From NCBI GenBank assembly GCA_016748015.1, contig JAAOMT010000659.1:871222-935221 (forward strand): 64,000 bases of DNA, in the 5' to 3' direction. This DNA is from Geosiphon pyriformis uo1. Its lineage: Eukaryota; Fungi; Glomeromycota. Shown piece by piece: positions 15,286-54,311 of this stretch. A model generated the notes under the pieces. The model did not search any database and was not told where the DNA came from. It worked only from the letters and a program-made list of their open reading frames with translations. Positions within the stretch are counted from its first letter, which is position 1. Each line of letters starts with the position of its first letter. The position numbers and the translations under genes were made by a program.

Positions 15286-15325
15286 TTTTAGATTTGTGTT
15301 GGTGCTGGTTCTCTGTAGGATTATA

Positions 15326-15342: not shown

Positions 15343-15344
15343 AA

Positions 15345-29781: not shown

Positions 29782-31008
29782 TATTACTGGAGGTTTTTGG
29801 TCTCTTTTCTTAAATGTTGTTAATGTCTGTTTGTTGTAAATTCATGTTTTCTAGAAGTAATTGGACCTCCAGTAACTGAATTTATCTTCAAATTATCTTC
29901 TATAATTTGAACTGCTGGGCTTATAAGTAGAATAACCAATTTCTTGTCAGTTACTTTATGTAGTTACATTATAGTAAATGTCAACTCTTTTCCAGGAATT
30001 GCTTATCTGGAAGCTCACTAAAAATGTGTAGTTACTTTGCTGTGAAAGTCAACTTTTCTACAGGAATCTCATTTGTAGGCTACTCTAATTATTATAATAA
30101 GAAAATAAAAGAAAAGTAAAAGAAATTGAATTTTGTCAAGAGAAACGTTTTCTATTTAGGCCTGGAATCACTAACAGTTTACTGAAATTGGTAGCTAATC
30201 AATTTCAAAATGTTAGTTAGGTTTTGGGAATTTTCCAAGTACAATAATTAAAAAAATTTGGTTTTTTGAATTATTTGATATTTATTTCTTTTTGTGTGTA
30301 TAAGAATGGTTCTAGTAATAAAATCTAAAGTAAGATATATTTTCTTGAAGAAAAAAGCTCTTCTTTTATACAACTTGTTGTAATACTAGTCTATGAACTT
30401 GCACTTTTTCTTTTTGCTCAAATTTTGGCAAACTAAAAATACATTTTGATGAACTACAAGTTATTTCACTGAACTATTGATTAATTTGGGTGAACTATTC
30501 ATAATTTCGGCGAATTTCTGTAAATTTCGGTGAATTTTAGAATGTTACAAAGTTCAGAGTATTGTGTAATTTAATCATCCTACTTTCTGTTATACTAATT
30601 AGATTATTTTAATTAAATCGTGATATGTGATAATTGATTAAATAATAAATGATAATTTGAAATAATATTAATATACTAATNNNNNNNNNNNNNNNNNNNN
30701 AAAAATACATTTTGATGAACTACAAGTTATTTCACTGAACTATTGATTAATTTGGGTGAACTATTCATAATTTCGGCGAATTTCTGTAAATTTCGGTGAA
30801 TTTTAGAATGTTACAAAGTTCAGAGTATTGTGTAATTTAATCATCCTACTTTCTGTTATACTAATTAGATTATTTTAATTAAATCGTGATATGTGATAAT
30901 TGATTAAATAATAAATGATAATTTGAAATAATATTAATATACTAATTAATTATAGGGATTATAAAGGTAATTTCATGCTAATTACTAGCTAAAATTCTAC
31001 TGGTAACA
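29782..31008 (-). repeat. 5' LTR of B1 (contains an assembly gap and a duplicated segment)
   Basis: Matches 20837-21827. The sequence after the N run (30701 onward) repeats ~30435-30680. Confidence 0.9.
30681..30700. other. assembly gap (20 N) with overlapping contig ends
   Basis: Run of n with ~240 bp duplicated on either side. Confidence 0.95.
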
Positions 31009-32299
31009 CTGGTTACATACATCAGAGCCAGATGTGTTGTTGTTTGTTTTGAGTCAGCCAAATCATTAGATGCTATTATGGAAACCACACCTGTGTTAAA
31101 AGATGCTCATTTTCATTGGTTCTATCTTGGTTCTGCTATATATGCAAAGTGTGGAAGGTTGAATCATACTTCTTTGGGCTGTGGTTTTGGTAGAAAATTG
31201 CTTTCTGGTAAGTTGCCACGCCAGGTGTTTTCAGATTTTGATAAAAGTAGACTGGCAACCATTTATGCCAAGCGTTCAGCTCTGGTCACTTGGCCAGTTG
31301 CTTTTGATGATGCTTCATGGGCTAGTGTTGTTAATGAGTCTTCTTTTCCCCCTTTCTCTGGTCAGAATGTTTTTTTAAAAAATGGCTCCTCTTCGGTGAT
31401 GAAGCCTACCCTGCTGGTGTCTTTAGAAATGAATGATAGGTTTGCTGCTCTTGAGTGCAGTCTTGCCAGCCTCGCAGAGTGAGTTGATAAGCTGGCTAAG
31501 AGGTTGGACACACCTGGGCCAATGGTTTTTCAGCTTAGCCCTGGACATCAGCCATTGATGACTCCTTCATCACAGAATCAAGGGGCAGATATAGTAATGA
31601 GTGAGAGTTCAGGTGTGGTCACTAGTGATGAGACTGTTGTGGGGACAGTGATTTTTGATCTTTCAGTTGTCTTGAAAATGGAAGAAACTTTAAAAAATTT
31701 TTCAGTTATGGTTATGAGTCTTTCAGCTAAAATAAACAATGCTGGTCTGGTGCCTATTATTCATTCTTCTTAATGATAGATCTGATTTGAAAAGTTGTCA
31801 CATGTAATGTTAGAAGAATAAATAATCCTGCAAAACAGGAAGATATCATTTATTGGCATAAGGATATGAGCAATTTAATTTCTATTTTTACAGAATCAAA
31901 GCTGAAGGAAAATGTTCATCTGTAAATTGCTAACAAGTTTGATGGTATTTGGGTGTTTACTTCTGGTTTGGATTCTGGTTATCTGAGTGCTGGTGTGACT
32001 ATATATATATGTTTATAGTTCTACAAAAAAACATATTATAATATTTTTTTTTGATATTTTAACTTGGTATTTGCTATTATTACTAATTAGTATTAGTTAT
32101 TATTGCAAACTGGTGCTTGTTATTATTACAAGATAATGCTTGTTATTATGTTAATTATTATTTTTTTAAGATTATTGTTGTGTTATATTATAATTAAAAA
32201 TTTTATATTTTTTTATATTTTTTTGCTAAATTTTTGAATTATAATACCAAAAAACAAACAATTTTTTGAATAGTATTTTACATAAAATTCAGATTAGAA

Positions 32300-35200
32300 A
32301 GTTTTTTTAAATAATTAAAAGCTTTATTAAACACCATAATATTTACCAATATAATATTTTTAAACCAAGTTTATTTGATTATATTAGTTTTTTTAAAGTT
32401 GTATTTCTATTAATTTTTATTAATATGCTTGCAAAAAACATTCAAGTATTTGTTCAAAATATTACTTAAACCAATAGAAATAAAAATAGCAAAGTAGTTA
32501 ATATTAAAAAAATTATTTATATTTAAAACTACTTTGTTAATTACTATATTAATCAAATTTAATAATATAAAAACATAATCAATTGTTTTTTTGACTCTTT
32601 TAAGATTTTTTATATAAAAATTTTAATAAATAAATTATCAATCAAAAAATTAATCAAACCAAAATCAATACACTTTTTGAAATTAGTATTATATTTAATA
32701 TTATTTTTATTGAAATTATTTTTTAAAATAACAAAAGTATTTTTATTAAATATACTAACTATAAAAAAATTGATAATAAATATTTAATTTAACTGTTTTT
32801 TTCAGAAATATATTTACATATAATCTCAAAACAAAAACTGACTGTTTGTTTTTAAATAATAAACAAATCATTAAAAGTTTATCAAAAGTTTTTAAAATTT
32901 TTAAAATATGTTTAGCCAAATATTATTTACAATTAATACAACACTAGTATTTATATATTCTAAATTTAAACCAAAAGTGAATACTCTTATATTCATAAAT
33001 TTATTTGCAATTTATAATTTAATATTAAAATAAAGCTTAATTTTAGTAATAATTAAAATGTTATTTTTTAATTCTCTATATTGCTTAATAATATTATTCT
33101 ATTTAACAAAAATGTTTACTTTTTTAATATTATATATAGCTATTTTTCAAGTTAAGTTACTTATTGAAAATATAAAGAAAGTAACATATTATTGCTTAAA
33201 CTAAAGAATTTTAGTTTATTTATAATTAACTTTATTAAATTTTTTAAAATTATTATATTAGTTTTTAAATCATTAATTTTAATAATTAAAACTTTAGATC
33301 CACTAAAAGAAATATTTCAAAATACATTAGTTATATCTGATAACAAATGAAAAAACTGTAATAATATTTTAATAGCTAATTTAAATTTTAGACTATTATA
33401 TTGTATAAGCATTTTTTTGGTATTTAATAATAATATATAATAAATAAAAATGTTTAACTTATAAATAATATTAACAATATAATTAGCCAACAATTTTATA
33501 GAATATTTTAAAATATCTAAATAAAAAATCAAAATCAAAGTTGCTAAGTTATTATTAGAACTGTTAAGTAAAAATTCTACCAAAAAAATACTAATTAATA
33601 ACATAAATAAAAGACAATTTAAGAAATCACTTATTATAAAAGCCTAAATAATATTATTAAAAAACACCAAGTAAAACACTAAAGCTTGTTTTTTTGTATA
33701 AATAAAAGCAAAATGCTTTTTATTAGAATTAGAAAAAAAAAATTTCAAATTTTAACCAAAATTTTTTAAATTCAACTTATAAATACTAAAAATATGACTG
33801 TATTTTTTCTATTTAATGTATATAAAAGTTAACAATTTAGTTCAAATTAAGCTTACACTCTTAAAAACAGAAATTAAATAAACAGCAGCATATTTGGCTT
33901 TAGCAGAATTAAAATACATAATAATACAATATATATATATATATAATACAGAATTTTATAAAATAAAACATATTTTTCTACTATAAAACAAGAAAAGTTT
34001 AGAAAAATTGTTATTATTAACCAAAATTTGAAATATTATTTAGCATAAAATTATTTTTATAATTTTTATTGTTTATTAGCATATATTATTATTTTAATTT
34101 ATTACTTATTATCTTAACAAATTATTTAAATTATTATTCAATTAATAATTCGATTTATACAAAACACAAATATAATTATATTATAATAATCAGATTATGT
34201 AATACACTAAATTATGTAACATTTAAATTTATTAAAATATTTTAGTAATTTGATAAAATATTTAACAGTTTATTAAAATAATCTATAGTTTGCAAAAATA
34301 ACTTGTATTTTGATAAAATATATTTTTAGTTTATTAAAATATTAAAAAAAAAGTGCTAGATTATAGAATAATAATAAACAAATTATATAAAAAAAAAGCT
34401 TTTCTCTTTAAAAAAATATATCTTAGCTAGAATTAATTTTTTTTTAAATATCTTTTTTATAAATCAATTCAAATAAAATTTACTTAAAAAACATAAATTC
34501 TTTAATTATTTTTGTTTCAAAATCTACTATTTCATACTAACAGTTTAAAATTAATTAGCTATTAATTTCAGTAATTATTAATAACTTTTAAGTTTGGATT
34601 TAAAACAACTTTCTTGATACATATTTTTATTTTTTTTCTTTAGTTTACAATTTTATTTTATTTTTTATTTTTATTTTTTTATTTTTATATTATTGGATAA
34701 TTTACAATCGAAATTTTCTGTAAAAAAGTTGATTTTTATAGCAAAATAACTATATATATTTTTAAAAAGCTTACAGATAAAATTTTTTGTAAAAAAGTCA
34801 ACTTTTATTATAAAGTAACTATACAAGTAATTAACATAAAATTGGTTATTTTATCATAAATCCAACAGTATATACAGTTTAAAATATAAAAAGATACTTT
34901 GAAAAAAATTTTAACTTATTAAAAATTTATTATCTTTTATTAATAGTAAAATTAATAATAAAACAGTATTAACAATATTAAAATAAAAATAAAAAAATCT
35001 TTAATAAATATTATAAATAATAGTGCTTATTAGCAAAGTGTATAGAAAAGTACAATAATAGTTTTTCAAATCTTATGTTTGTTTGTTATTATTGGTTTTG
35101 ATTATGTAAACAAAATTTGTGTTTAGCAAAATTAATTATTTGAAAACAACCAAGTTAGCAGTTTTTGTATTATTAAATTTAATTAATATTTTTTGCCAAA

Positions 35201-36200
35201 AACCAATAAATTGTATCTTAATAGATTTTACTATATTTAATTAATATTGATTTTAAAGCTGATTTGAACAGATTAACCAGAATTTTCTTAACAATAACTT
35301 TTTAATCTGATTTAATATTAAGTTTTTTTAAATTAATATTAACTTTGATATTTATTTTTATAGCCAATTATTTAGCAGTTTTTAAACTAATTTCAGATGT
35401 GAATATAAATTTAATAATGTCTTAAAATTTTAAAAAATTGATGTTTCTTCAAAATCATTAATTTAATAAAAAAGTTTTTTAATAATAAATTTAATTTTTT
35501 TGTTCAGAGACTTGTTAAAAACCACAACAAAACCAACATTTAATGTGAATAATTTAACTAGTTTAAAACTTTTATTTTCCTTGGTATTTGTAGTCATAAG
35601 TACAATAATATTAATAGATATAAGCAATAAAAAATCAAAAACTTTATTATTACTTAATATATTAAAAGATAGCTTCTTAGAAAGCTTAAATAAATTGTAA
35701 ATTATAAAATAAATGTCTTTTGGTATAATTTTATCTATGAATTTACTGTTACTTAAACTATTTTAATTGATATAACTGGTTTTTTCTACTATTATGTTTT
35801 TTAAATTTTCTAAATTAGATGTTTTAGTAATACTTCTTATTTTGCTATTAATTTTATTGCTTTAAAATTAATACTTACTTATGTTACTACTTTTTAATAC
35901 ATTTATAATTAAAGGCCCAATTGATGAATTTATAATATTAGATTCAGCAACAATTTTTTTGAATTATTTAACAAAGTTCTTTAAATTATATATATATGTA
36001 TTTTGGTTTTTTTAGACTAAAGCAATTTTTTATATTATTTTTACCAATATTTGTAATTTTAATTAAACTACTAGTTAAAATTATAAATGAACTTGTATTA
36101 AAAAAAATAGTTAAAAAAATAAAAAAATAAAAAAAATAAGTAAATAACCATTTTTTAAATTTCAGTAGTTTTATTATAAGCAAAAAATTAATAAAAAAAA
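32300..36200 (-). mobile_element. highly AT-converted LINE (ORF1 plus endonuclease start) interrupted by a solo LTR; boundaries approximate
   Basis: Minus-strand remnants VKSIKIQFIGFWQ (~35200-35240), FLYTLLISTIIYN (35011-35050) and YSRKICFI (33962-33985) match LINE ORF1. Confidence 0.7.
34012..35010 (+). repeat. decayed solo LTR related to family B
   Basis: Block-by-block collinear with 62604-63574 and ~1 kb long. Flanks TTGT/TTAT fit a decayed 4-bp TSD. The LINE reading frame resumes across it. Confidence 0.75.
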
Positions 36201-36419
36201 GAGTTTTTTGATTAATTTAAAAATAAAAAAAACTTATTTATAAATTATATAATTTATAATACATATTAGAAAAAAGTAATATTTTATAAATAAAACAAAA
36301 AAATAAATATAAAAACATATTTATAATAAATAATATTTATAAATTATTTTAATAAAAAAAAGTATTAAGTATTTTTAATTTAAAAAATATATAAATTTTA
36401 TTTATTTAAATAATTAATT

Positions 36420-38070
36420 ATATATAAAAAATACATAAGTTATATGTATTGTATATTATTTTAAATAATAATTTAAACTAAGTATGAATTATGTTTTTTC
36501 TATATGTAACCAGCCATTTGGACTGATTAGAACAATACTATATACTTATATAAACCAAAACTAAGTCTTTAATGCCTAAAAAAAACAAGCAAGACTTACA
36601 TAAGCCAAAACTAACACCAAATGTTTCAGTAATACTGAGCAGTCTAATTACATCAACAGAAAACACCATAGACAATTCAAAAATAAAAACAAAAACCAAA
36701 CTATTATGTGAAATCAGCCTATTTTTTTTCATAAAGACATGATGCTTAATATGAATCAACCAAACCTCTTTCCTAAAAACAAGCCAAAAATCATGCACAA
36801 AACTTATAATCTTCAGACCTGCAACTTTGGAATCACCAAAAACAAAAACAGCCTCTTGATGTTAATTATTAAGAACAAAGCTCTTGCAAAAAGTCATACA
36901 TTGTAACATTAGAAACACAAGAAAACATTAACTGAAATACACATAAAAAAGAATGAAGAAAACCAAAAAGCACTTTTTAAGTATCTGCATAGACATTTAA
37001 CAAATAATGGTAAACAGAATTGTTAATTGTGCAAAAAAAAACATGGTCTGAGATCTCAACATTATCACAATACAAACATATTATATTGAAGTAATACTTA
37101 TTATACAAATACTTTTAAATAACAATGAATAGTTAATAGTGCAAAGCTTTTATAAAATAACTATAAACACTAGTAGTAAGTCTACTAGTGAAACCAGTAG
37201 TCATATGTAAGTTAAAATGCTATACCAAAAATGAACTAAGCCAATTAATGTTTGAGAACAAACAATTAGCCAGAATCTTAAAACCAAAACTGATCTTCAA
37301 GTGTGCATAATAAATAAAGCAAAAAATTTTATAAACAAAATATTTAGAATTACTAAAAACAATATTACCACCAGTTTTAATATAATGTTTTTTCAATTGG
37401 AGAAAAAACACCAATTAAAGAGAGATACAATATTAGCAAATGCATCAATGCATTCATTATCCAAAACATCTGAGTGATTTTTTACTTTGTGTCAGCTAAT
37501 ATTCAAATTTTTGTTACAAATAATGTCTACAATATGCTATCATTCAATCCAACACTAATTCCAAAAATTTGAACACATCAAATCCAATTTAGATTTGCAT
37601 GCATCCAAAACTACTTGACTATCTATAAATAATTGAACTAAGCCACAAAAGAGAACACACTTAAGAGCCAATACAATAATCTGTAACTTTACTAATATAA
37701 AAAACATTAAACCAGAAATCTCAACATTCAAATTTAAATTTACATTCTCAAAAAAAACCACAGTACTAGCTCTTATGTGGGTTGTTCTTAAGTTTTTTAA
37801 AGACCTATCTATATAGACAAACTACTAATATTAACATCTAATAAACAACCACAAACCAATTCAAATTTACTTGATTCGAAAATATTAAAAGATTCAGTAT
37901 TACCCAAAAAAGAGGAAGAAAGCCATACCACTAAAAAAGTTAACAAAAAGCTTAAATTATTCAGAAATAGGGCCATAAAAATCCAATTTCTTCCAATACT
38001 TGAAGGTTTTTTAATCAAAAATATTACTATTTCAACAATAAAATTAGTCCACAAAAGCAATACTATATCA
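36420..38070 (-). mobile_element. decayed LINE 3' portion (RNase H, C-terminus, 3' UTR)
   Basis: ORFs 36538-36798 and 37555-37761 align by eye to the LINE copy 2 ORF2 C-terminus and RNase H (DSQVVLDAC). The 3' UTR matches 58993-59060. Confidence 0.85.
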
Positions 38071-38699
38071 CCAAAGCAAATTTAATTATTTTTATAATTA
38101 GAATATAAATATTATTAAAAAATCTATTAACTTTAATAAAACAAAATTAATTAAATAAGTATTATATATATTTATTAAAACTAAATAATCAGTTATAATA
38201 AATATCAAAAAAATTATATTAATTAATTTTTGCTTTTTATATTTTATTTTAAACTTAAAATTAAATATTTAAAATTTTTTATAATAACTAACCAAAACAA
38301 TAATTTAAAATAATATTAACTTAAAAATTTTAAAAAAATTCAAAAACTTTTTATATTAATTTTTTAAACTCAATTTTTTATAAAAATTATATATTTTGTA
38401 TTAAGTTTTTGTTTAAAATAAACATTATAATATTAAAAAACCAATAATTAATATTTGATATAAAAAATTATTTTTTTATTTTTTTATTAAGATTTAATAA
38501 ATATAACCTAACTATTATCTAAAAATTAAAAACAAATTAAATATTCTAATACTAAATATAATTTATGTGCTTTTTATATATAACTAGTTATTTAAGTTAA
38601 TTCAAGCTATACTATGTTGATACTCTAAAAAAAACTTATTTAAAAAAAACATTTTTTAAACAATTTTAAACAATATAATAATATTATTAATCAATCCAA

Positions 38700-40677
38700 C
38701 CAGCCACTTATTTGTTTTTAAAATATCAGTCTTTATAACAACAGATTTATGTTTTCAAAGTAACATCAAATTAGAAAACATATTATTATTAACAAAAAAC
38801 AAATTCATATAAAGACCAGACATATTAAAATCCTTATAATTATACTCAATTTTCAAAGCAATTATTTTTTGTTTCAGCTTATTAAAAGCTTTGTTAAAAA
38901 TACTTATGTGTACTAAAAGTTTATTGACTTTAAGACCAAAAAGACTACTTAAAACCAAATTTTTATTAATAAATTGTTCAAACACAATAATTATAAAACT
39001 AACTGACTTAACAATAGAATTAACCAAAGCAAAAAACTTGGCCAACTCAAATTTTAAAGAGATTAATTAAGAAGAAATCACAAAATTATTAATCATTATA
39101 TTAGCAAAAAAAGCTAAACCAACCAAAACCAAAAAAAATGCAGAAGCAGCAGTTTTAACATAAAACTTGTTGTCAACAACAAAAAAAATAAAAGTCTTGG
39201 AAACTTTAAGAGAAAAAAATGAAGACATTTTACAATCTAAAGTCAAATAATTCAAATTCTAATACCAAAAACAGTGCTGATTTTTAAAAGTTTTTTATTA
39301 GATATGGCATTTTTTTAGCATATTAGTTTTAATAATTACAACATTTAAATCAACCTGAAATTTAAATATAATCAGAGTAAACTGGAAATAATAATTAGAA
39401 TCAAGAAAGCAAAGAATAAAATATGTTTAACCACTAACCTAAAAAATCATATTACTAATTTCAAAAACAGTACAACCAAAAAAAAAATTAACCAATTTGG
39501 TCTTAAACTTATCACAAAACAGAATAGTCTTATTTTGATTTATTAAGAAGAAGATTCTAATATTATTTTTGCTTATTAAAACCAATCAATAATTCAAAAC
39601 AGACACAGTAAAATCCAGTTTATTAAAATAAACAACCATATATTACCAAACACTAACAGATTTTAGCAAAACACAGACAACTTTATTAAACACATTAAAA
39701 ACAGTCTTAATATTAGCAGCAAATATATATTAGAAACATATTATATAGCATAACAACAGCAAAAAAAAAACCAAATTTAGAAATCACCAAAAACTTGGCA
39801 ATTTTAAAGATGACCAAAAAAACAAAGCTTATAAGTTCAACCAAAAAAACAGCTTTCAAAAATTCTTAAAAAGCAAACTCTATACAGAAAAGCTTTATAT
39901 TGTCTTTTGACATTGACTTTGTATCCAAAAAACCATGTACAGACTGAAAAACAGTCTTAACATAAGCCAATTTAATTTTGAAAGTAGTATTAAACACCAA
40001 AGTAGAAGCCATTTATTCAATAAATCTTTAATAACTAGTAATAATTTCTTAAGCACTATTAGTAGCAGTACCAAAAATCAATAAGAAGAATAATTCAGTT
40101 TCTAAAAACAGATGACTTTATAAAAGATAATTACTTTGTTTTTAAAACCAGTAAAAATTACCAGAAAATATTATATTTAGCAACACAATTAGTAGTTAAT
40201 CTTAGTCTATCTTAAATAACATATTAGATAATATAACAGAAATTTCATCTAAGATCTCATTAAAAATTACAAAAAAGTTCAGTATAACAATAGCAAAAGT
40301 AAATAACTGCTTCCATTTTTTGAATCTTTGGTCTTTTTAACTATTTTTTTAAAGAAGTAATGCTAATAACACCAGGTATAAAAGCTATAAAGAAGAAAAC
40401 CAGTTTGCTAACTAATCTGTTTTAAAAAATTTTGGGCTTTTAAAAAAGATAAAGACAATATTAAGACTAATTTATGTGTGTTTTTTTAAAAAAACTTTGA
40501 CTAAAAAAGAACTAGTCAAAAATAGTTTTTTATTATTAATATTAAAGAAAAAGTTTTCAAAACATTTTGTCTAGCAGTTTTTACAACAGAAAAAACTTTT
40601 TTGATTAAAACTTTGTAAAATGCTAAAAAAAAAGTATTAGTTATAGCTTTTTTACTTTTTGTTCTGGTTGTGATCAT
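38700..40677 (-). mobile_element. decayed ORF1 of another repeat family, probably a LINE
   Basis: Starts MITTRTKSKKA, has a decayed Cys knuckle region near 39250-39350, and has a homologous plus-strand copy at 50471. Confidence 0.55.
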
Positions 40678-41929
40678 AAAATTAAGAAAACAAAGAATAT
40701 TGTTATATTTAAATTTTATTTTTTAATAAATTTATTAATAATTAAATTTTTTTTATATAATAAATACAAAGTTTATTAAAATAATTTTTATAATAATATA
40801 ATTTTTTTAATATTATTAATATTTTTTTATAAAAAGTTTTAATAAATATAAATGTAAATTAATTAATTTATAGTTTATAAAACCAGATTTAATGTGTTTA
40901 AAATATTGAATTTGTATTAAAAAAACCCATTAAATTTTTTATTTCAATATAATTAATAAATTTAAATATATAAAACAATTTTTATAAAATATTTTTACAA
41001 ATTTATAAAATAATTTAATTATATACTAAGTATTTTTTTATATAATACTATATGTTTTAATAAATTGATTTTTATTTGTATTAACAAAATTAAAACAAAC
41101 TTCACAAAATTTTTTACCTAGTAAATTGGTATTTTTATTATTTATAATTTTAATATAATTTTAAATTTTAAATTATATAACACAAAAGTTTTTTTTAATA
41201 ATAAAACTAATTTGTTTTTTTTATTCATTATTTATTATAATAATTAATATTTTTAGTAATGTTTTTAATTATCAAATATTTAAACAGCTTGGCTATTTAA
41301 AAATAATTTAAAAATACTATTAATTAAAATAATATTAAGAATTAAAAAAATTATTTAAAGTTTTATTTTAATATTTAAACCAAAATTCAAATTAAAAAAC
41401 AAGTTGCAGTACTATTTATGGTTTTAAAAATATTAAAATTTTTTAATAATTTTTTAATATAAATAAAAATACATAAAAAATCAGTATTAAACTTTTTTTA
41501 ATCTTACAAAAAATCACAGTTAAAAAACCATTTTTAATATTATAATAAATTAAATTTAATAACAATATATCTAACTTTTTAGTATTTATTCTTTTTGTTT
41601 TGATAGTATTTATTTTAAAATCTAAAAAAACTTTTTTATGATTAATTTTAAACTTAATATTAATTATTATAATTTTTTTTAATATTTGTTTAGAATTAAT
41701 TTTTATATTATTAAATATATTAAATATATTTATTTTGTTATCTAAAAATAAAAATTTAACCAAAAAAAAATTGTTTTATCTTTAGAATTTTTAATATTAT
41801 TGTTTATTTTTCTGGATTTTTTAATAAAATTATGTATAATATCTTTTAAAGTTTTTTTTGGTTATGTTATTATTATTAATAACCATCAGTTTTAATATAA
41901 AAAAATTAATACTTTATAAAATATTAAAC

Positions 41930-42018
41930 AATAAAAAAACAAAATAAAACAAAATAAAATAAAATAAAATAAATAAAACAAAACAAATAAAACAAAATAA
42001 AATAAAATAAAACAAAAA
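41930..42018 (+). repeat. (AAAAT/AAAAC)n simple repeat
   Basis: Directly visible pentamer array, similar to the A-rich block inside family A LTRs. Confidence 0.8.
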
Positions 42019-43973
42019 CTTTAAAATTTTTATTTTATAAAATTTTAAATATAGAAAAGAAAAAACTTTTTAAGATATTTATTTTTAATAAACCAAAATA
42101 TTTTAATTTTTATTATTAATTAATATTTTAAAATTAATATTAATTATTTTATTATTATTAATACAATATTCAAAAATTTTATATTAAATATTTTAAAAAT
42201 TAGTATTAATTTATAAATATAATTAAATTATTTATTATTCTAAAATATACAATAATAAAAATTTGAAGCAGTTTAAAATAATTTTAAACAATATAAGCAA
42301 TTTAAATAAAATTCTTAAAATTTAATAAATTTTTACAAAACAAATATTATTAAAATTTAAAACAATAATAATTTGAAATTGTATAAAAAAAGCTTATTTT
42401 TTTTAATAAATATATTTAATAACAGAATAATAATTTTATTACAATTTACCAAAACAATTTTTTTTAACTAAATTATAATCAAGAAAAAAATCATAATTTT
42501 GGAATGTTTAATTATTAACTTTAATAAATTAGATTTATTTAAAATTATTAAACTCAAAAAAAACAAGTTTTTTATTTTTTTTTATTGCTTTAACAAAGTG
42601 TAATCAATTATTAACTATGATATAAATTTTACAAATAGTCATAATTAACACTTTTTTACATGTAATTAGCCATTAAAATCGGTTTAAAATATATAAATAA
42701 ATATTATAATTATTTTTAAAACTTTAACATAATATTATTAAAATTTATTAACCAAAAAATAATTTAATACCAAAACTTTTTAATAAATTATAATATTAAA
42801 TTAAATCTTAACTAAATTAAGTATTTTTCTATTATTAAAAATTACTTTAGAATAACAATAAATATAAATTGTTTTTATTTAAATTAAAGTTCTTAAAAAC
42901 AAGTTTGTAGTATATACATATAATTAATTAAAATTAAAAGTTATTTTACAATAATAAAAATTGGCAGCTTTATAAAATTATTGAATTTAAAAAAAAATGA
43001 ATTTATTAATATTAAAAAACAAAACTTTTAAAAATACTTTAAGTAATAAAAATAATTTCTGATCAAAATTATTTATTAGATATAAAAATTTGCTTATTAT
43101 AATAAATTATAAACATTTATTAATTTTATATTTAAAAAAAATATAGAATATTTTTATATAAAAAACATAATTAAAAATATAATTAATTTAGAAAATTTTC
43201 TTAAAAAAAAATGAATAATAAACAAAAACTATTACAAAAATTTTAACATTATTGTTAATTACATTAACTGTTAATTAAGTAATTCACAAAACTGATTTTT
43301 AAATTACAAATATATTTAGAATAATAACCAAAAAATTAAATTATTAAAAATACTAACAAACCAATTTTATAACAGCACAATTTTAAGTAAATACCAGGGT
43401 TTCAAAATGGAATTATTTTAAAAAAATAAAGCTTATTTAAAATTTATTACTTCTGTATAAATACAAATTAAATATTTTTAACTTATTAATATTTATTTTA
43501 TTTTTAATAGTTTTTTTAATAATACCGGTTTATCATGGTCTATACATTGCAAATATTGGCAAAAATTTAATTAAGATTGTTAAATTGCGTTGCAGTTAAA
43601 GGGCAAAAACATTTTGAGCCAAAATTCGTTTCCTTTTGTGCACATAATTATCTAGAAATTCATGTCCCCAAATAAACAGAAAATTTTTTGATTCCTTATT
43701 GCAGACAACAATATTCTTATGAATGTAGTACGATGATACCTGCCATCAAGTTTACATTCACAAAAAATTTCCACCAATAGAAAGACTCCATCATTATTTT
43801 TGCAGAACAAATGTGCAGTGTGATGGTTTCTTAAGGCTGAAAGAGTGAGCTTAGCAGCTCTCTTTTTACTGTCAAAGCAAAGATCTTTCTATTTAGTTTT
43901 GGTGGCTTTTGCATTTTTTAGTCGGTGGGATTTCGAATAGTTTAAGTAACTTCTACATAGCCCTTTTGGGAAA

Positions 43974-46072
43974 ATGGGTGATTATTTTCGTAGTTGATTG
44001 GTTTGATCATTACCGATTCGTGGTCAAAGCCTTTTTAACGCGAAACTTAACTTTAACGTATGCCGTTGATGCGATTTTAAAGCGAACAAAAGGAAAGGGA
44101 CTAAAATGTCCTTGGGTACTTTCTTGACCGATCAGTGTATGTAGGCACTAGGCTGTTAGTGATCCTTCACTCTTTTCTAGTGATATATTGATCTGTTGTT
44201 ATCTGGAAATCTTCAAATAAATGTATTTCGGTTATCAACCAGCAACAGGATCATGGGCTGATCAAATGGAAGATTTACCCTCTGCACGTAAGTATTTGGA
44301 CATGGTTTTTTCTTTGGAATAATTCATGATCTTGTAGCTGAAAATTTTTCAATTTTTTTCAATAGCTGCGGCCTCATTTTCAGGTAAGGTTCGAATTTTA
44401 GAATTCAAAGATATATCGTAAAACCTAATGTTAATGACACATATTTAATCTTTTAGGGGAAAACGAAGGTGGTGGATTTTCCGATCGTGGGAGTCGGGGA
44501 GGCTTTAATCGAAGCTATTCTAGAGGTATCAATAAAAATTACCATAGGATCATAAATTTAAAATTATATATTTTGTAGATATTTCAATCTTAGAAAATTA
44601 CTTCTAGATTCACGCTACGAAAGTCGTGACTCACCGCGTGATACTAGGTTTTCGTCTCGTGCTGAACGTCCACCACAACCTCTTCCTACATCTCCACCAT
44701 TTACGGCACATCTTGGAAATCTGCCTTTTGATTTAACAGAGCAAGACATTCAAAATTTCTTTCATGAATCAAAGGTTTGAAAATGCTTCATTTTTTATTT
44801 TTTATTCAAAGTTTTTGATTAGGCTTAAATGGAATTTGATTATAAATACAGATTTCCAATATCAGAATTCTTCGAGATAGAGAAGATAAACCTAAAGGTT
44901 TCGGATATGTTGAATTTGATGATTTAGTATCTTTAACAAAAGCATTAGAGTTGAGTGGCGAGGTATGAGGGATTTTTTTTCTGTTAAGTGGTTTTCGTTT
45001 ATGTAAGCTAGATTCCCATGAAATTTCTGATTTTTCTTGATAATTTTATCAGACGATTCGTAACAGAGTTATTAGAGTTAGTGTAGCCGAACCACGTGAG
45101 CAGCTTTTATTATTTTAATATAGGTTTAAAAAGTCTAATTTTAATGCACACCTTAGAATTAATGTCTAAAATTTGATAGCACGAGAGCGTGATCAGCAAG
45201 AAGATCGTACTGCAGGAGAATGGAGAAGAGCTCCCAGAGATTCTCCTTCTTCATCACCGAGAAACGATCGATTTGGTAGTGGTGATAGATATGGACATCG
45301 AGAAGATCGATGGAGTGGAAGAAGTGAGCCACGCGAGTCACGTGAATCTCGTGAAAGAAATACACGTAGTGATCGTGGTGATAGTAGTCCTCGTGGTGAT
45401 CGTGTTGACCGTCCAGAACGTGGAGGATTCCGTGATAGAAATGATCGTAGCATGGATAGAACCGATCGTAGTAGAATTGATACCGATTGGAAAGGTGGGG
45501 CTTTTAGTAATAGAGGAAATAGTTTTCGAGATCGTCGACCAGAGGAAAGACCTGGTAATTGTAAAATTGATTTATTTTTCAAGAAAATAAATAGAAAATT
45601 GAAATGCCTCCTTACTTTTATATATTTTACAGGGACATCCAACACTTCCCCTCCACCGCCATCTTCTTTTCGTAAACGGCTTGACCTAAAACCCCGCAGC
45701 AATACAGCTCCTGCTACCAATACTACTGCTACTACTGCTACTACTGCTATTACTACTACTACTACCGCTACTGCTACTGCTACCACCACCATCATTAATA
45801 CCACTGAAACTACATCATCATCATCACCAACACTTGAAGATTCATCTTCCTCATCATCTGTGACTTCAGCTCCTCGTGTCCATAAACCAAATCCTTTTGG
45901 GGATGCTAAACCAATAGATTCTGATGAAGCGCTGAGGCGTTTCGAAGAACGCAGAAAATTAAAAGAAAAAGAACGTGAAGAGAAAGAGTTGGCGGAAAAA
46001 GAATTAGCGGAAAAAGAAAAGAGTTCCGATTCCGAAAAAGTTATCATTACCAAGGAAAATGGGGATGGTTAA
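43974..46072 (+). CDS. TIF3: eukaryotic translation initiation factor 4B (RRM protein). Exons 43974-43977, 44083-44136, 44243-44287, 44366-44383, 44457-44525, 44608-44774, 44852-44962, 45053-45095, 45180-45554, 45633-46072
   Basis: All introns are GT-AG and keep frame. MSLGTFLTDQSTGSWADQMEDLP, PPFTAHLGNLPF (RNP2), KGFGYVEF (RNP1), DR-rich region, RKRLDLKPRS, KPNPFGDAKPID. The 4-nt first exon is the least certain part. Confidence 0.9.
45708..45800 (+). repeat. ACT/GCT trinucleotide repeat encoding a Thr/Ala tract in eIF4B
   Basis: TACTACTGCTACTACTGCTACT... directly visible. Confidence 0.85.
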
Positions 46073-46507
46073 AATAATACGTCTTCGATCTACGCAGGTA
46101 ATTTCATATATACATACCTATCCTGAATGAAACATCTGACAATCAAAAAAAAAGTCAACAATAATATTTAACTTTAGTTTTTGTTTATTATATTACTATG
46201 TAATCATGCGAAAGATATTTGATGCTTGTAGTTATTTAGAGCTAGCACGAAACACTTTACACAATATTCAAAATATTATTCTCAAAAATCACCCTATTTT
46301 TAATTTCAATTTAATCCTAAAAATTCTGCGTTCCCATCATAATTTGCTACAGCGCTAGCTACACTCAAAGGACTTTAAATCCTAAGCATAAAAAAGCGGT
46401 CACTAATAATGTGTCAGTACTGATCATCATTATTTACTAATAAATTTCTGATATGGATAAGAGTTTCTTCTCTTTGAACCAAGTTTTAATCAAATTACCT
46501 TAAAAAT

Positions 46508-47134
46508 ATGCCGCGCGCTGAATGGAACGGGGAGAGTAAGTTTGCAAAGTCTCAATCTTTTAAAGTGCTGCGAAAATGAAAAGATGCTTTCTTGCGTTCA
46601 CAAGAATTAATCCCGAATTTTATTGTAGTTATCGCAGAGAGCAATGTTTATGAGACTGTAGAGGGCAATATTTATGTATGTAATAATCCCGATAATATCT
46701 GAATAAAGGTGTAATTTTTTCTTTTTTTTTTTCTTAAACAGTTCCCACCAACCAGTATCAAACGTGAGCTTTTTATTGAAAGTCCTAACACCACCACTTG
46801 TTCCTGGAAAGGTGAGGCCCATTACTACACCCTCTCTGTAAATGGTATGTCTTTATTAATTTCTTTAAATTTTTGTATGTTTATTGTTAAACTTATAATA
46901 AGAATTTTTAAATTTTCTCGATTCATCTTTTTATAAAGGTTCTAAAAACAAAGATGCTGCTTGGTAAGCCACTAAAATACTCATCTTAAAATTTAATCAC
47001 TGCACCCAACTCAGAATGTATTCTGATAATTAAATTTTGGCCATACATATAGGTATTATCCGAACCCAAAACCTGCTGCTGCAAATATCGCTGGATATGT
47101 GGCTTTTTGGCGAGGGGTTACAGTAACTCCCTAG
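46508..47134 (+). CDS. DUF427 (NTP_transf_9) single-domain protein, 94 aa. Exons 46508-46535, 46629-46675, 46742-46844, 46939-46963, 47053-47134
   Basis: Four canonical GT-AG introns splice to MPRAEWNGEIIAESNVYETVEGNIYFPPTSIKRELFIESPNTTTCSWKGEAHYYTLSVNGSKNKDAAWYYPNPKPAAANIAGYVAFWRGVTVTP*. It carries the DUF427 motifs VEGNxYFP, TxCxWKG-A-YY, AAWYYP and VAFW. Confidence 0.92.
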
Positions 47135-47904
47135 ATTTCAGTGATTCGACGTATGCTGGTGGACACAATTGATAATCGGTCGCCTTTCCTTTTTTGTAGT
47201 TTCTGATTTCATTCTTAGTTATTGTTTCGTGATATTATTTCGAACCACTTGAATTGGTTATCATCAAATTGATTAAATTTTAAATATTTCACCCGCCATT
47301 AAGCAAACAAATGAATTAATAAGATTTTCTGCATAAAATTTACTGTTATTTTTGAATCATCTAGGTCATTAAAATTGATTTGGCTATTTCTAGTTTAACC
47401 ATAACAAAATTTTTCAAATATGGTGTATAATACATTAGGGAATAGTATACTTTCTCATTGTACAGCTTCCGAGATGGGTTTGAATAAATGCTACTTGCCT
47501 GGATTATAAAATAAAGGTGCTTATAAACTCTTCATTATCAATCGTCATAATGAATTTCTGCGTGAGAGAACTAAGTTGGATATTTGTAATTGTGATTATC
47601 AGAATATAGTATATACAAAAATACAATGGGATAGGCAAACGTGAACAAACGTCGATGGCCCAAATAAAAAAGGTAAATGCAAATCGGCACATTGTATTAT
47701 CGGCTATCACCATCATCAATTTCCCTTGAAGAATTTCCACCTTATTCAAATTTTTGAGAAAAGAAATTCATCGTGATTTTGAAGCCAGAAAAAGTTAGAT
47801 TCTGATGTAGCGGATCGGCGGAAATCCTAATCACGGGACAACAAATCTCCTTCCATGTCGAAAATTCCTATCATTGCTAAGAAAAAATTTTCCTTTTTCT
47901 TCAT

Positions 47905-49362
47905 TCAGCCAGTCCTATGTTGGTCATGTCTGGAAGTTATTTCATAGCTATTCCTTCGAGAATCATTTTGTTCCCCTTCCAATAAATAAGTTTCTGAAGA
48001 TTCGGATAATACAGATTGTCTGTCAAAATAGCGATCAACTGAAGAGTAAGAGGGTGGTGGGAGAGTGAGATCAGCCAATGAAATGTCCAAGGCGGCTTCA
48101 GGTTGTACCTCCATGCCTACTTGGGTGTATGAGATACGAGGAATATCTTCGGAGGGACGTCCTCTTGAGCTGGATTCTAAAAGAATTGATCCTCGTTCTG
48201 ATCCATAAGCGGGCGGAGGGGCAAGTGTTCCCATAGACGGAGCAAGTCCCCATTTTTTGACGTTTGCCTCAATAAAAACAAATCCAAGTTGCCCAAAATT
48301 TACATGAACACAGCAAGGTCCATTGGCCCCAACAGTAGGGAATAAATTCATTTTCATTCCAGTAAACGCATCGTCCAATTTTTTTCCATTGCGAGTGAAA
48401 AAAATTGTACCAGTTCGAGGACGGAATCCAACTCCAATAACGTCACCTTGCTGGAATTGCGGACCATAGGTTTTTCCATTAAAGGGTGAATTGTAGTACT
48501 TTAATCCAGAGTCTGAAAAATAAGATACTGAATGGCGATTCCAACCTAATATCAATAAATAAGAGTTAATGTGAGAAAATTAATAGTATTCAAATAATTC
48601 CATAACGTTCAAAAAATATACCTGGAAGACGAAACAAAGGATAAGGTTTAGTAGCTAATCCGACGGCAACTGTGGTGGATGATGGTTTTTCATACATCTT
48701 TGCTTCCCAATAATATACCTCTTGTTGTTTTGGTAAAGGTAAATTAGTTTGAACACAGCATTCACCATCATAAAATGCTATTTCCGTTCGGCATTCCACG
48801 AAACAATGGGTGTGATGTAGATCAGGTTCAAATTCCCAAGCTGAGACACCTTTTTCTTGAATAGAAAGAAATTGCGAAAGGGTAATATCTGTAGAGATGC
48901 CATCCGGGGGATATGCTTCTTGAAACACTTTTTTTCCGAGAAGGGATTTCAATTAAAAGATGAATTAAGATAAAATGGAAAAGAATCATTTTTTGGTTTT
49001 CAAATTATCAACAATCGCTAAAGTAATAACTTACGACGAGCACGTTCATAATTCTGTCGAGCAGCTTCGTCTAGAGTTTCAACCAGGCTTGCTTCTGCCC
49101 GAGCAATTTCTGGATCATTGACGTCCGGTATTCTGTTTTTATTAACGGCGGCAAGCCGATGACGAAAGCATGCCCAAATAACTATGAGCATTATAATAAC
49201 AAATGCACTAATTGTTCCGACAAGGGCAAAATTTGTCGACTGAGATCTTTTTGCATTTGCGGTATCATCAGTTTTGACTAAAGAGAGTTGCAGCAGAAAG
49301 ATAAATACTATGAAAGGGAGAGTGTGCTTTAAGCGGTACAAGTTTAAAAGTTTTTTAGGCAT
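47905..49362 (-). CDS. SSH4: Ssh4/Ear1-family SPRY-domain Rsp5 adaptor. Exons 49362-49035, 48927-48622, 48545-47905
   Basis: Hydrophobic N-terminus plus a TM helix, IQEKGVSAWEFEPD, YYWEAKMYEKP, KPYPLFRLPGWNRHSVSY, GFVFIEANVKKWGLAP, and PY motifs PPAY and PPSY. Introns are GT-AG. Confidence 0.92.
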
Positions 49363-50470
49363 TTTAGACTTTATATTCCGGGGTTGGAATCTTTTTTTTT
49401 TTTGAAGGTGAAGTAAGCGCAAAAATCTCTTTGAATTTGTTATCAATTAAATAGGAAAGTCACACTGAAGAAACCAAGAAATAAAGAGAGGTAAAGGCTG
49501 TATATTTACTATAAGTCACAAGTAAAAGAAACTGCAAATATTATAGACTGGAGAAAAGGGTTATTATATTTTCACCATATGTACTACGCAACCCGAAGTT
49601 TCATCCTTATCTTATTAATCCTAATCCAATTCTAAAGTCTTAAAAAAAAAAAAGAAGTATGTTGGGTATAACTGATTGATATTCAATTATAAGCCAGAAG
49701 TTTGTAAATCAAGGCTTATTTCAAAGTCCAACTTAAACAGTTGTTTCAATAAGGCTAAATTATGCATGATCAACCAAACAAAATTTTAAATTAAGATAAA
49801 TGTTTATCCATTTTTATTGCCATTTTAGAACGAGATGTGAAATAATCAAAAGACCTATAATCGGGAATGTTGTTGTATAAAATTGAAAATCCCACGGAAG
49901 AAGATCTCCATCTCGGTTGATCAAGTTGGAAAAATATCTTAATCTCAAATGTTGTGTCATAGAACTAAATGTCTACTTTACATTACTACTTTTTTTCATA
50001 AAATGTTTCGGAGAACGTAAATGGTCTTGCAATTCAACGATTACCAGAAAGGTTATGATAATGGCATAAGTAGTCCCAAAAGTTACTTTTTGTACACTTG
50101 TACCACTTTAAGTGTTTTGAATTAAAAATATTGTAGCAAATCTATTTGCGAAAGGACAAAGGCCATATATATTTTTATGAATATTAAAATCTTCATTTAC
50201 ATGAAAGCTTGAAATTTGATACAAGTTTAAACAACTTTTCAATCTGCAAAGTTAATTTCAAAGTAATCTTAAAATTTTAATACTCCAATTTATAAACAAT
50301 AATTTAGAAAAACTATAATAATAAAATTTGTATAAAAAAATATTATATTAATAATAAGAATTATTATTAAAAAATTTTTTAATTAAAATTAATAAAAATA
50401 AAATATCTTATTAAATATTGAAATTAAAATAATTTATAAACATTAAAAACTCTTTCTCTCTTATATTTTT

Positions 50471-51950
50471 ATGACTACAAACAAAGCTAAAAGTAAAAAA
50501 AAAACATACTTTATTTTGGTTTTTGGTTTTTTCAATATATCTATTTTAAAAGCTTTTTTTATAATAAAAACAGCAAAACAATATTTCATTAAAGCATTTT
50601 CTTAAGTAATAAAAACATAAAACAGCTTTTAATTGTTAAAAAAACACTTTTTTTATCTTTGATTAAAAACACTTTTTTTTAAATTAATTTACCAAAGAAA
50701 GTTTTAATGTATTTATTATTATTGTAAAAAGTTTTAGAATTTTTAATTATAAATTAATAGTTAAGTTGTCATTTTTTGTTGTTTAAATAATTAGAAAAGC
50801 CAAATTAAAATAAAACATTAATTTTACTTGGTTTTTTAATGTTTTTTTTATTTAATAATATTTATATTAATTATAATATTCAGTTTTATTTGGTTATAAA
50901 CAATAATATTTTTTTTTAAACAATAATAATAACAATATATCTGTTAAAGTTAATTAAAATTAACAAATAACTATATTATTTAATATAATAAAATTTAGTA
51001 GTTTTTATTAATTAAATTATAAAAGCTTAAACTTTTTTGTTTTTCTTAAAAATATTATTAAATTTAATAATATCTGAAAAATAATTATTAATTATTAAAA
51101 TTTTTTGAATAAATAATTTTTATTTTAATATTTAACATTATTTAAAAATTTTAAATAACTTTTATTAAAATTGTATTTTAGTTTTTATATAATTTATTAA
51201 TTTAAATTAAGATTAAAACATTATTGAATTTTTTTATGTAAAATTAGTATTTTAAATATTGCTATCAAAATTAAGTTTATTAAAATTATAAAATTGCTTA
51301 TAATTTCTGTTTTTGGTTTTTTTATTGTTGTGATTTTTATATTTTTTCTTTTAAATAGCTTTTTTAATAACAGTAAAAATGTTTTTTATGTTTTTTTTGT
51401 AAAGTTTTTAATATTAAATTAAAGCTTACTAATTTTTATTGTTTATTTTAAATTTTTTAAAGTTTTTAAAATTGTTTTTGCTTGTTGGTTTTTATTAATA
51501 AAAAAAATAATTTAGAATTTTTTAATAAAAAAAAATTGCTTTTCTTTTATAATACTTTTAAAACCAAATTAATTATTTTTTTTATGTATTATTATTAAAA
51601 ATTAGAAAAGTTTTTAATAAAATTATTATTAAAATTAATACTTTGCAAAAATATTATATTTAATAAAAAAGTTTTTTTGTAACTTATTTTGTTGGTTTAA
51701 TGTTTTATAATAATTTTTAAAATTATTATTAAAATAAAAATAATATTTTGAAATTTTACTTATTTAATTTATTTAACTTATTGGTATTTTAATTTAATTA
51801 TAAAAAACTTAATATATTGGTTAAATATTTAAGTGTTTTTTTAAAAAGCAATTAATAATATTGCTAAATTAATTACCAATATATAAAAATTTTATTGGTT
51901 TAAAAAAAATTTAAAATAAATCTGGTACTGATTTTTTTTAAATTTAATTA
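50471..51950 (+). mobile_element. extremely AT-converted ORF1 relic, same family as 38700-40677; end approximate
   Basis: Starts ATGACTACAAACAAAGCTAAAAGTAAAAAA (MTTNKAKSKK), matching the minus-strand copy. Confidence 0.5.
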
Positions 51951-52521
51951 ATTAATAATGTTTTAAAATTTTAAGTTTTTTCTATAAAAATAATAAAAAA
52001 ATAACTTATTTATAATTAAAAAAAATTGTTATATTAATAAAATAAAAACACATATATTTTTTTTGTTTAATTTAAAATAATTTTAATTAATATAATAATT
52101 TATATATTGTTTATAATATAATATATATTTTAATATATAATAATTAAATTATTAAAAATAATTATAATTAAATTATATTTGTAAAAAATAAAACAATTTA
52201 TTAAGTTATAAATATTAATTAATATAAAAAATTATTATATAAACGTAAATTTAAATATAAAATATTAATTTAATTTAAAGTAACAAAAAAAACAAAAATT
52301 TTGCTTTTTAAAATTAAAATTATATAATTTTTTATAAATATAAAATTTCCATATATTTTTTTTTAGTATTAATTAACAAACAAAAACAGTAGGAAAAACT
52401 TTTTTCTCTCTTTCATCCCAAATTCCTAAAAAAAAGTCAAAAGTTTTTTACAATTCAGTATAATAAATCCAAACTCTTTATTCTTAACTATAAGGCCACT
52501 GTTGGCTATAGTATTGCTGTT

Positions 52522-54311
52522 ATGAAAAAGACTGTCAAAGCTTTTGGTCCTGTTGTTGGTCTTAAACTCATTCTTCTAAGGAAAAAAAAAAGAGGTGGTA
52601 TTTTGAAAAATGCTTCTGGTGACATTAATATTGTGTCAAAAGTTCAAGATAGTCATTTATGGGGTTCTAAGACTGGTAACACCACCGAGTCTAACAGCAT
52701 GAACATGAAGAAAAAATGTTTGGTGGAGGAAACTAGTTTTGATTATGGTGCAGATGGTACTCTTGCTGATGGTAATTTGGATCAGACACCTAAAGGCTCA
52801 TGGGTAAAAACCAAGAAGACATTGGGGAAACCATTGGGGAAAATTAATTTCTTGAGTGATAATAAGAGTGATGATATTTTGTTGGATGCTTCTCTGGCTT
52901 TGCCATCTTCTTTGAAAAACCTGGTTAATGTTTTTGTCAGAAAATTTTTTGTCTTAGATATTGATTTGAACAATGTTGCTGAAAAATCAGTACAGGAAAA
53001 GCTTGGGGTGGTTAGAAAGTTATTTTCAAAAATCAATGGTTTTGGGGGGGTCTTTACCCCCTCAAAATTTGCTGGAATCATTAGAGCAACATTTACATCT
53101 GAATCAAGTTTAATAAAAGCCACTAATATGACTACAAATATGAAAATTCTGGTAACACACCAATCTTAAAAGATCACTTAGGCATTCAGATTGGGCAGTA
53201 GTACTTAAGAAAATCCCAATTGGAACATTAGCTGAGACTGTGTGCACTGTGCTGTCTGATTTTGAGTTGATTAAGTTAATCAAAATACAATTGATAGGGC
53301 TGTGGCAAAAAGCTGTGGTTGAATTTAAACAGATTGATCATGCTGATTTGGTTGCAGCAAAATGGTCTATCTTGATTGGAAAAGATGCAGTATGTGTTAC
53401 AAGAGCTAATATGGACAAAAAATCATGAGATGTAAGAAATGTTCACAGAGCTCTTTTGTACACTCTGCTTATAGAGACTAATGCACATAATATTTGGAAC
53501 TACATTACTTCAGTGGGTGATAAAACTTGTGTTATCAACTATCATTAAGTTTTTTATGCCCAGACCAACTATTTGCTTTGACTCTGCTGATTTTTTGGAT
53601 GCTGTCATGGGAACCACGTCTGTTTTAAGAGGAGCCAATCTGCATTGGTCTTGTTTTGTTTTGGTTAGATGTGCTGGGTGTAGGAAATTGGGTCATACTT
53701 CCTTGGCTTGTTTTGCTGATGAGAAAAAGAGTGTCTCTTCTGGTACTTGGTCATGAAAAACTCTCTCGAGTTTTGATAAAAGCAGGCTAGCTGCCATTTA
53801 CGCCAAACATTTGGCTCCAGTTGCTTATCTGGTTTCTTTTGGTAGTGCTTCTTGGACACAAATTGCTAATGGAACCTCTTTTTTTTCTCTTCCTGTACAG
53901 AGTGTGTTGTTGAATTCTGGCTCCTCTTTGGAGATGAAGCCTACTCTGCTGGTGTTTTTGGATTTGAATAATAGGTTTGCCACTCTTGAGCACAGTCTCG
54001 CCAGCCTCACAGAGCATGTTGATAAGCTGGCTATAAAGTTGGATATGCCTGGGCCAATAGTTTTCTAGCTTAGCCCTAGATGTCAGCCATTGGTAACCCC
54101 TTCATCACAGAATCAAGGGACAGATATAGTGATAAATGAGGGTTCAAGTATGGCCACTAGTGATAAGACTGTTGCAGGTGCAGTGGTTTTTGATCCCTCG
54201 GTTATCTCAAAAATGGAGGAAACATTGAGGAATCTTTTAGTTATGGTTATGAACCTATCAGCTAAAATAGACAATGCTAATTCTGTTCCTGTCTTTCGTT
54301 CTTCTCAATAA
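52522..54311 (+). pseudogene. LINE ORF1 (nucleic-acid-binding, knuckle CAGCRKLGHTSLAC), frameshifted
   Basis: Fragments 52522-53169, 53240-53428, 53481-53756, 53811-54068 and 54090-54311 are collinear with copy 1 ORF1. Confidence 0.88.

Follow-up and report, generated by a model that had tools for sequence, protein, structure and literature searches.

Repeat-confined cytosine loss with a 5'-T preference in a 64-kb window of the Geosiphon pyriformis genome

The window and its repeat copies

The window analysed here, 64,000 nucleotides of the glomeromycotan fungus Geosiphon pyriformis uo1 (contig JAAOMT010000659.1, positions 871,222 to 935,221), consists of stacked copies of Gypsy retrotransposons and long interspersed nuclear elements (LINEs) around a gene island at 43530-50170 (Table 1). 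Its repeat copies lose cytosines as C>T or G>A changes on either strand, and the loss continues after insertion, in the order CpG > TpC (about twice RpC, R being a purine) > CpC ≈ RpC, with CpA not favoured overall. A preliminary description had read the interval 32000-43500 as the work of a mutator with a CpG plus YpC preference (Y, pyrimidine). The CpG and non-CpG components are indeed both present, but the robust 5' preference is for T, CpC being raised only in two pairs of long terminal repeats (LTRs).

The two LTRs of one element are identical at insertion, so the differences between those of the Gypsy element B1 arose in the chromosome. Over 897 aligned columns (20837-21765 against 29782-30680) these LTRs differ by 45 substitutions, all of them C/T or G/A, with 0 transversions; the chance of 45/45 transitions is 1.5e-8 at a transition share of 67%, 1e-4 at 82% and 0.002 at 87%, the share found in related elements from metagenomes. 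A CpG, still present or since lost, lies behind 12 of the 45; the other 33 arose outside CpG (TC 18, AC 6, CC 6, GC 3). The first ~230 bp, for which roughly 15 such differences had been described, hold 16, all transitions, and the non-CpG examples given (CTCCT/CTTCT, GTGGA/GTAGA and TGCCA/TGTCA) stand at positions 116, 146 and 164 of LTR 20837, position 146 being A in all three other LTRs, so that direction is uncertain there. At 37 of the 45 sites C or G occurs in an outgroup (the B2 5' LTR, 62604, served in this role), a rule that leans toward calling C>T; 5 of the other 8 sites are CpG-derived, and T>C comes into question at no more than 3 sites outside CpG.

The gradient described for the five B-type LTRs (62604, 20837, 29782, 60941 and 34012) holds, with GC contents of 0.292, 0.272, 0.260, 0.190 and 0.124; "near-pure AT" for the last means 88% AT, and it is the only one of the five within 32000-43500. 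A primer-binding site (PBS) had likewise been said to decay from one string to another. Both strings are present, and the descent of the relic is suggestive only: a comparison of 16250-19700 with the A element found no flanking alignment around it.

The same direction is seen beyond B1. Contigs of a run, X1, that may be the source of this assembly show 311 differences on element B2 (19,911 pieces), namely 211 C>T/G>A, 59 in reverse and 41 transversions, and in intact-to-decayed pairs 45-63% of Cs became T against 4-11% for T>C. The strands behave alike (TC loss 0.35 and 0.40), without bias relative to the element strand. Genome-wide, 120 LINE proteins (the best 120 of 169 matches, all from Geosiphon, sharing ancestry and limited to copies that retain an open reading frame, ORF) show E>K at 0.25 and D>N at 0.29, the TC-context changes, against 0.11 for T>I/M and 0.14 for A>V in RC context, with reverse changes at 0.02 (K>E) and 0.01 (N>D) within a reverse range of 0.001-0.07; over 239 usable columns the per-column median is 0.26 for E>K plus D>N and 0.15 for RC-type changes (p 5e-6).

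Table 1. Repeats, tracts and genes of the window (o/e, observed over expected).
Feature	Coordinates	Strand	Remarks
Two tandem A-type Gypsy units	642..16214	-	LTRs near 7560-8408 and 15350-16214; dUTPase domain
Likely decayed PBS	17654..17670	-	6 transitions from A-type PBS 7543-7559
LINE 5' part (G9A89_021416), B1 insertion target	19680..20836	+	Resumes at 31009-31999
B1 3' LTR (Gypsy element B1)	20837..21827	-	GC 0.27
B1 5' LTR	29782..31008	-	GC 0.26; adjoins B1 PBS; contains 20-N gap
Decayed LINE, 5' half	32269..35963	-	GC ~0.14; split by solo LTR 34012; aligns to LINE 53012-55203
B-type solo LTR	34012..35007	+	GC 0.12; nested in decayed LINE
Decayed LINE, 3' part	36026..38070	-	GC 0.22; aligns to 57443-59519
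Decayed copy of second multicopy ORF, likely LINE ORF1-like	38632..40552	-	41-46% identity to P0241 residues 53-619
Extreme AT tract	40700..43500		GC 0.10; 1 CpG; TpC o/e 0.52; putative repeat origin
Three-gene island, used as control	43530..50170		Third gene with SPRY domain
Extreme AT tract	50250..52350		GC 0.10; TpC o/e 0.45; putative repeat origin
Lightly decayed LINE	52400..59050	+	GC 0.36; CpG o/e 0.07; reference for directional counts
Extreme AT tract	59100..60400		GC 0.09; TpC o/e 0.61; putative repeat origin
B-type solo LTR	60941..61922	+	GC 0.19
B2 5' LTR (element B2)	62604..63574	+	GC 0.29; least decayed B-type LTR

Element B1, inside a LINE ORF1, is bracketed by CTGG at 20833-20836 and 31009-31012, a 4-bp target duplication that reads as a decayed CpG site; the window ORF 19720-20589 matches G9A89_021416 of Geosiphon pyriformis with 100% identity across 86% of the ORF. 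At 30435-30946 in the B1 5' LTR an exact 246-bp duplicate stands on either side of the gap, likely an assembly overlap. Matches to LINE proteins lie at 33632-34000 and 34992-35963 of the decayed LINE 5' half, and P0241, from another Geosiphon contig, also matches the LINE ORF1s of the window, weakly; no Pfam family matched the P0241-like ORF. At least 120 Geosiphon "hypothetical proteins" (P0121-P0240) belong to a single LINE ORF1 family in decay, so many annotations of this kind call for caution as decaying LINE copies.

The two A-type units are 82% identical, with 1087 transitions and ~250 transversions between them. A dUTPase domain occurs in both Gypsy families (2314-3357; 25963-27153), which is notable given the heavy cytosine loss in this genome. 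Gypsy sense strands (1-30000) are rich in A and C and LINE sense strands (52400-59000) in T and G, a contrast that likely reflects element composition, the decay itself being strand-symmetric. In the island, the gene at 44221-46072, which may be eIF4B-like, has eight exons that join into a 429-codon open frame, and the best named match of the SPRY gene is in Gigaspora rosea (76%). The most AT-rich tracts (40700-43500 and 50250-52350) border the island on either side, and four AT-extreme tracts sit directly upstream of LINE starts, which may be an effect of age or of position; that they are homologous LINE 5' untranslated regions found no backing, with 3 of 56 comparisons passing z 4 at trivial scores. 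Self-comparison kept only matches anchored on G/C columns; plain BLAST was swamped by AT-rich chance matches.

Sequence context and confinement of the loss

Context was counted at columns with both flanks conserved. Five lightly decayed pairs lost 78/102 cytosines at CpG (0.76), 400/1075 at TC (0.37), 135/579 at CC (0.23), 209/966 at AC (0.22) and 95/509 at GC (0.19), or corrected per-copy loads of 0.97 (CpG), 0.26 (TC), 0.14 (CC), 0.13 (AC) and 0.11 (GC); five heavily decayed pairs lost 174/260 at TC (0.67), 117/241 at AC (0.49), 23/55 at CC (0.42) and 30/82 at GC (0.37). The cleanest neutral set, two single-element LTR pairs, gives TC 46/163, CC 14/65 and RC 20/198, that is, 0.28 > 0.22 > 0.10 (TC against RC, odds ratio (OR) 3.5, p 1e-5; CC against RC, p 0.03). 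With context read from intact copies only, TC exceeds RC with an OR of 2.0 in LTRs and LINEs alike, and no significant CC excess over RC appears in decayed copies (OR 1.2-1.3, p ~0.3).

Position -1 is the dominant flank (p 6e-20), with smaller effects at -2 and +2. TpCpA, TpCpC and TpCpT are all elevated, CpG is lost regardless of its 5' base, and G at +2 shows no excess, which leaves no CHG preference (H, any base but G). Preference for CpA, the mark of classical RIP (point mutation induced by repeats), does not show overall: CpA and CpY are lost at 0.26 and 0.28 in light pairs and at 0.58 and 0.61 in decayed LINEs, and in the B1 pair CpA is lower than CpY. In this respect the preliminary description was right to set the context apart from CpA-type RIP, and right also that surviving Cs mostly follow purines (decayed tracts totalling 14.9 kb have o/e values of 0.63 for TpC, 1.12 for ApC and 2.20 for GpC). 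The stretch 16250-17200 departs from this, having no CpG but no depletion of TpC either (o/e 1.16, GC 0.245). Counts of T<>A changes by flank (TTA/TAA 10/329, ATT/AAT 9/646) are too small to use.

In the internal pair of A-type units, which diverged partly under selection (transitions by codon position 248/172/279), the TC excess has ORs of 2.4 and 2.8 at codon positions 1 and 2. A codon artefact is ruled out: LTR pairs show the excess, codon positions 1 and 2 show it as well, and related coding elements counted in the same way do not. Those relatives, Gypsy copies, come from 76 integrase loci of metagenomes (L001-L076, hosts not known), of which 70 yield 35 disjoint pairs with 2647 transitions and 385 transversions. 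A high transition share is thus no peculiarity of this genome. These transition-rich pairs do not share the 5'-T bias (TC against RC, OR 0.89): an OR above 1.5 is reached by 1 of the 35 and by 9 of 10 window pairs (the tenth at 1.48), with a z of difference of 8.8. Their context ranks AC and CC first, then TC, then GC, and CpG is less depleted in them (median o/e 0.36). The 5'-T signature is real, reproducible and lineage-specific in repeats, and its difference from the related metagenome elements implies that either the enzyme or the lifestyle changed in this lineage.

The loss is confined to repeats, as the preliminary description held. CpG o/e in the gene island is 0.89 in exons, 0.93 in introns and 0.85 in intergenic DNA, and TpC o/e is 1.18, 1.22 and 1.03, the value for 12 introns being 1.17 without one miscalled intron of the second gene, which did not splice to an open frame. 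In decayed tracts the corresponding values are 0.09 (CpG) and 0.63 (TpC); by class, CpG o/e falls from 0.88 in unique non-coding DNA through 0.15 in young repeats to 0.09. The TC:RC share of introns against decayed tracts has an OR of 2.9 (TT:RT control 1.0), GC is 0.10 in decayed tracts against 0.21-0.23 in introns, and the borders of decay at the island are sharp to ~100-150 bp. A CpG- and TpC-biased mutation acting genome-wide, with unique DNA keeping its Cs through selection or GC-biased conversion, might be argued from this control, which is the composition, not the substitution spectrum, of just 3.6 kb of possibly selected non-coding DNA. We nevertheless regard this explanation as very doubtful, because introns retain both CpG and TpC and because 134 of 1048 Cs stand in CpG in unique non-coding DNA, against 14 of 2151 in decayed tracts.

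Young repeat sequence was also evolved in simulation to 14% GC under alternative context models. CpG x8 with flat C>T predicts a TpC o/e of 1.04 against the observed 0.63, which simulated TC x2 and x3 bracket (0.71 and 0.55). CpG deamination plus a flat AT bias, the full explanation against which the mutator had been set, thus fails in simulation, and unique non-coding DNA lacks the signature. Rejected as well were YC x2, which predicts a CpC o/e of 0.79 against 1.09-1.28, and CpA x5, which predicts a RIP substrate index of 0.34 against 0.98.

Bursts, light and methylation as sources of the signature

RIP hits a copy in strand-coordinated bursts, and APOBEC editing leaves strand-coordinated clusters or an element-strand bias. 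No significant same-strand runs of mutation were found (p 0.27 and 0.07), and 6 tests on copies gave no short-gap clustering (p 0.05 at the lowest); many overlaid rounds could blur such a signal in older pairs. The lack of strand-coordinated bursts argues against both processes, and unclustered changes on both strands with C>G rare (20 against 560 C>T) fit slow, site-by-site deamination better. An AID/APOBEC-like deaminase that edits retroelements with a TC preference would share the 5'-TC motif of APOBEC3. Such an enzyme is highly improbable, since the changes postdate insertion, show neither clusters nor element-strand bias, and obey no YTC or RTC rule (ATC 0.40, CTC 0.28, GTC 0.43, TTC 0.37); the part of a family survey available to us names metazoa, dictyostelids and algae, with no fungal member (PMC5889660).

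A true RIP with a changed target, in which homology-triggered, RID-dependent premeiotic bursts favour TpC, is a long shot. The B1 pair holds transitions only, decay is confined to repeats with sharp borders, two decayed solo LTRs show a CpA excess, and RID is reported in the clade of arbuscular mycorrhizal fungi (AMF; PMC8298701). Yet neither same-strand runs nor clustering accompany these features, CpA is not preferred overall, and the RIP indices of 32000-43500 are near-neutral (TpA/ApT 1.08, substrate index 1.01).

The main rival invokes light. Geosiphon bladders are located at the soil surface. Ultraviolet (UV) photoproducts at TC dipyrimidines, both poorly repaired and more prone to deaminate in methylated heterochromatin, would add a TpC excess to the decay of 5-methylcytosine (5mC), in the bold form a fossil sunlight signature in the repeats of a cyanobacteria-farming fungus. 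The bladders house the cyanobacterium and fix CO2 (PMC1853082), so nuclei may see light, and in Arabidopsis the C>T changes that UV-B causes at TC(C/T) concentrate on methylated cytosines and transposons, while CC>TT does not occur (PMC5146273). The TC > CC > RC ranking of the LTR pairs, the B1 trinucleotides (TCC 8, TCT 8, TCA 2), the unclustered mutations and the related metagenome elements without the bias all fit. We still hold UV to be unlikely. Arabidopsis genes and unmethylated Cs are also hit (PMC5146273), yet no TpC loss shows in Geosiphon introns (o/e 1.17-1.22) or between the genes (1.03), as far as the composition of the non-coding control tells. In pooled LTR pairs TCA equals TCY (OR 0.88), CC is not raised in decayed copies, and there is no T>C excess after T. 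Tandem CC>TT changes show no significant excess in pooled sets (OR 1.34-1.46, p 0.08-0.2; the lowest p belongs to OR 1.34), and sequential CC>TC>TT predicts the same. Light-exposed nuclei would moreover have to reach spores.

That C or 5mC simply deaminates spontaneously where chromatin is compact, combined with a lineage-peculiar, neighbour-dependent repair and no special enzyme preference, has rather poor odds. Such a process would suit the scattered, two-stranded and modest twofold effect over a C>T rate that is high whatever the context (0.11-0.14 per copy against 0.26), and relatives with a high transition rate and a different context. Alone, however, it accounts neither for the borders at the island nor for decay so far below intron GC.

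For the non-CpG part, methyltransferase-linked loss is favoured because it explains the strict confinement to repeats, and repeat-confined CpG loss is an established mark of 5mC deamination. We put a probability of about 0.45 on a cytosine methyltransferase that marks silenced repeats with a 5'-T preference, the marked bases deaminating to T. A candidate methyltransferase would mark cytosines of silenced repeats in CpG and non-CpG contexts, favouring a 5' T; the marked cytosines would deaminate singly, site after site; and loss may run on during vegetative growth, as in the Dim2-dependent mitotic mutator of Zymoseptoria, toward an endpoint near 10% GC. We infer methylation at this locus, its extension to non-CpG sites, a DIM-2-, RID- or DNMT1-like enzyme, and silent chromatin rather than homologous pairing as trigger. 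CG methylation is found in AMF repeats (PMC8647823), DNMT1, DNMT5, DIM-2 and RID are reported from the AMF clade (PMC8298701), repeats of Phycomyces carry CG and CHH methylation (PMC11258239), and Dim2 drives mitotic C>T in repeats (PMC8016269). A bolder version is tentative, at clearly less than even odds: a mutator of Geosiphon's own, built on a methyltransferase or a deaminase, that reads the 5' base (TpC) and grinds silenced retrotransposons to ~10% GC, a RIP analogue outside Dikarya that CpA screens do not see.

Several points weigh against methyltransferase-linked loss with a 5'-T preference. In the literature consulted, fungal methyltransferases have preferences for the 3' base, CpA, CpT or CpG (PMC4352252, PMC8016269), and a 5' T is said to matter only as part of TpCpG (PMC3318451). 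The observed context also fits UV (PMC5146273). CpG is lost no faster after T (TCG 37/47, other CpG 41/55), CpG being near saturation. In the two decayed solo LTRs CpA is lost more than CpY (0.57 against 0.35, p 0.001). The A internal pair has no TC excess at codon position 3 (OR 1.22, p 0.43); here bias-free lineage divergence may dilute a post-insertion decay that has the bias. Window comparisons found no repeat homologue for the three most AT-rich tracts. The metagenome pairs lack the bias, and their hosts may share the enzymes; the unique-DNA control is as narrow as described above.

Comparison with known systems

Signatures like those of RIP are reported almost only from ascomycetes (PMC12543289; its main text and 12 of its 19 supplementary files do not contain Geosiphon) and as undetected in Gigaspora and Mucoromycotina (PMC8647823). 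The 10 supplementary files searched of PMC11258239 have Geosiphon in an assembly table and a sequence label. We found no report of repeat hypermutation in Geosiphon in the literature searched (including the available parts of PMC11952901 and PMC13297926), which did not cover the Geosiphon genome paper. A signature that depends on a 5' T and is indifferent to the 3' base gives near-neutral RIP indices and could therefore have been missed; it likely reflects a mutator that is slow, linked to methylation and different from textbook RIP, and that standard RIP indices would probably overlook. Through it, the action of the DIM-2 and RID homologues reported in mycorrhizal fungi could be read out and tested at low cost. 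Set beside known systems, it compares as follows:

(i) The Dim2 mitotic mutator of Zymoseptoria tritici also confines C>T to methylated repeats, acts outside CpG and needs no sexual cycle, but more than 98% of its targets are CpA and CpG is spared (PMC8016269). In Geosiphon CpG is the top target, the 3' base is otherwise minor and a 5' T matters, and a role for Dim2 is only a candidate one.

(ii) RID-dependent RIP of ascomycetes likewise reduces repeats, densely and by transitions only, to sharply bordered AT-rich relics, sparing unique DNA (PMC4352252, PMC12543289). Geosiphon, which lies outside Ascomycota, shows neither the 3'-base preference (CpA, in some species CpT) overall nor strand-coordinated bursts.

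(iii) The hypermutation of Pucciniomycotina shares the 5'-T effect on C>T in repeats, but raises only TpCpG and not partial matches (PMC3318451), whereas in Geosiphon TpCpA, TpCpC and TpCpT are raised too.

(iv) UV-B damage to methylated Arabidopsis transposons has the TC context, the enrichment in transposons and no clear CC>TT in common with the Geosiphon repeats; it prefers TC(C/T) and hits genes (PMC5146273), whereas in the pooled Geosiphon pairs TCA and TCY are equal and unique DNA bears no trace.

(v) Plain deamination of 5mCpG in AMF repeats also depletes CpG in repeats and retains it in genes (PMC8647823), but it leaves the non-CpG majority of the B1 differences (33/45) to be explained, and the CpG-plus-flat model fails.

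On the features tested, the signature works like a slow RIP analogue and departs from RIP, from the Dim2 CpA mutator, from TpCpG hypermutation and from APOBEC editing, with which it shares the TC motif.

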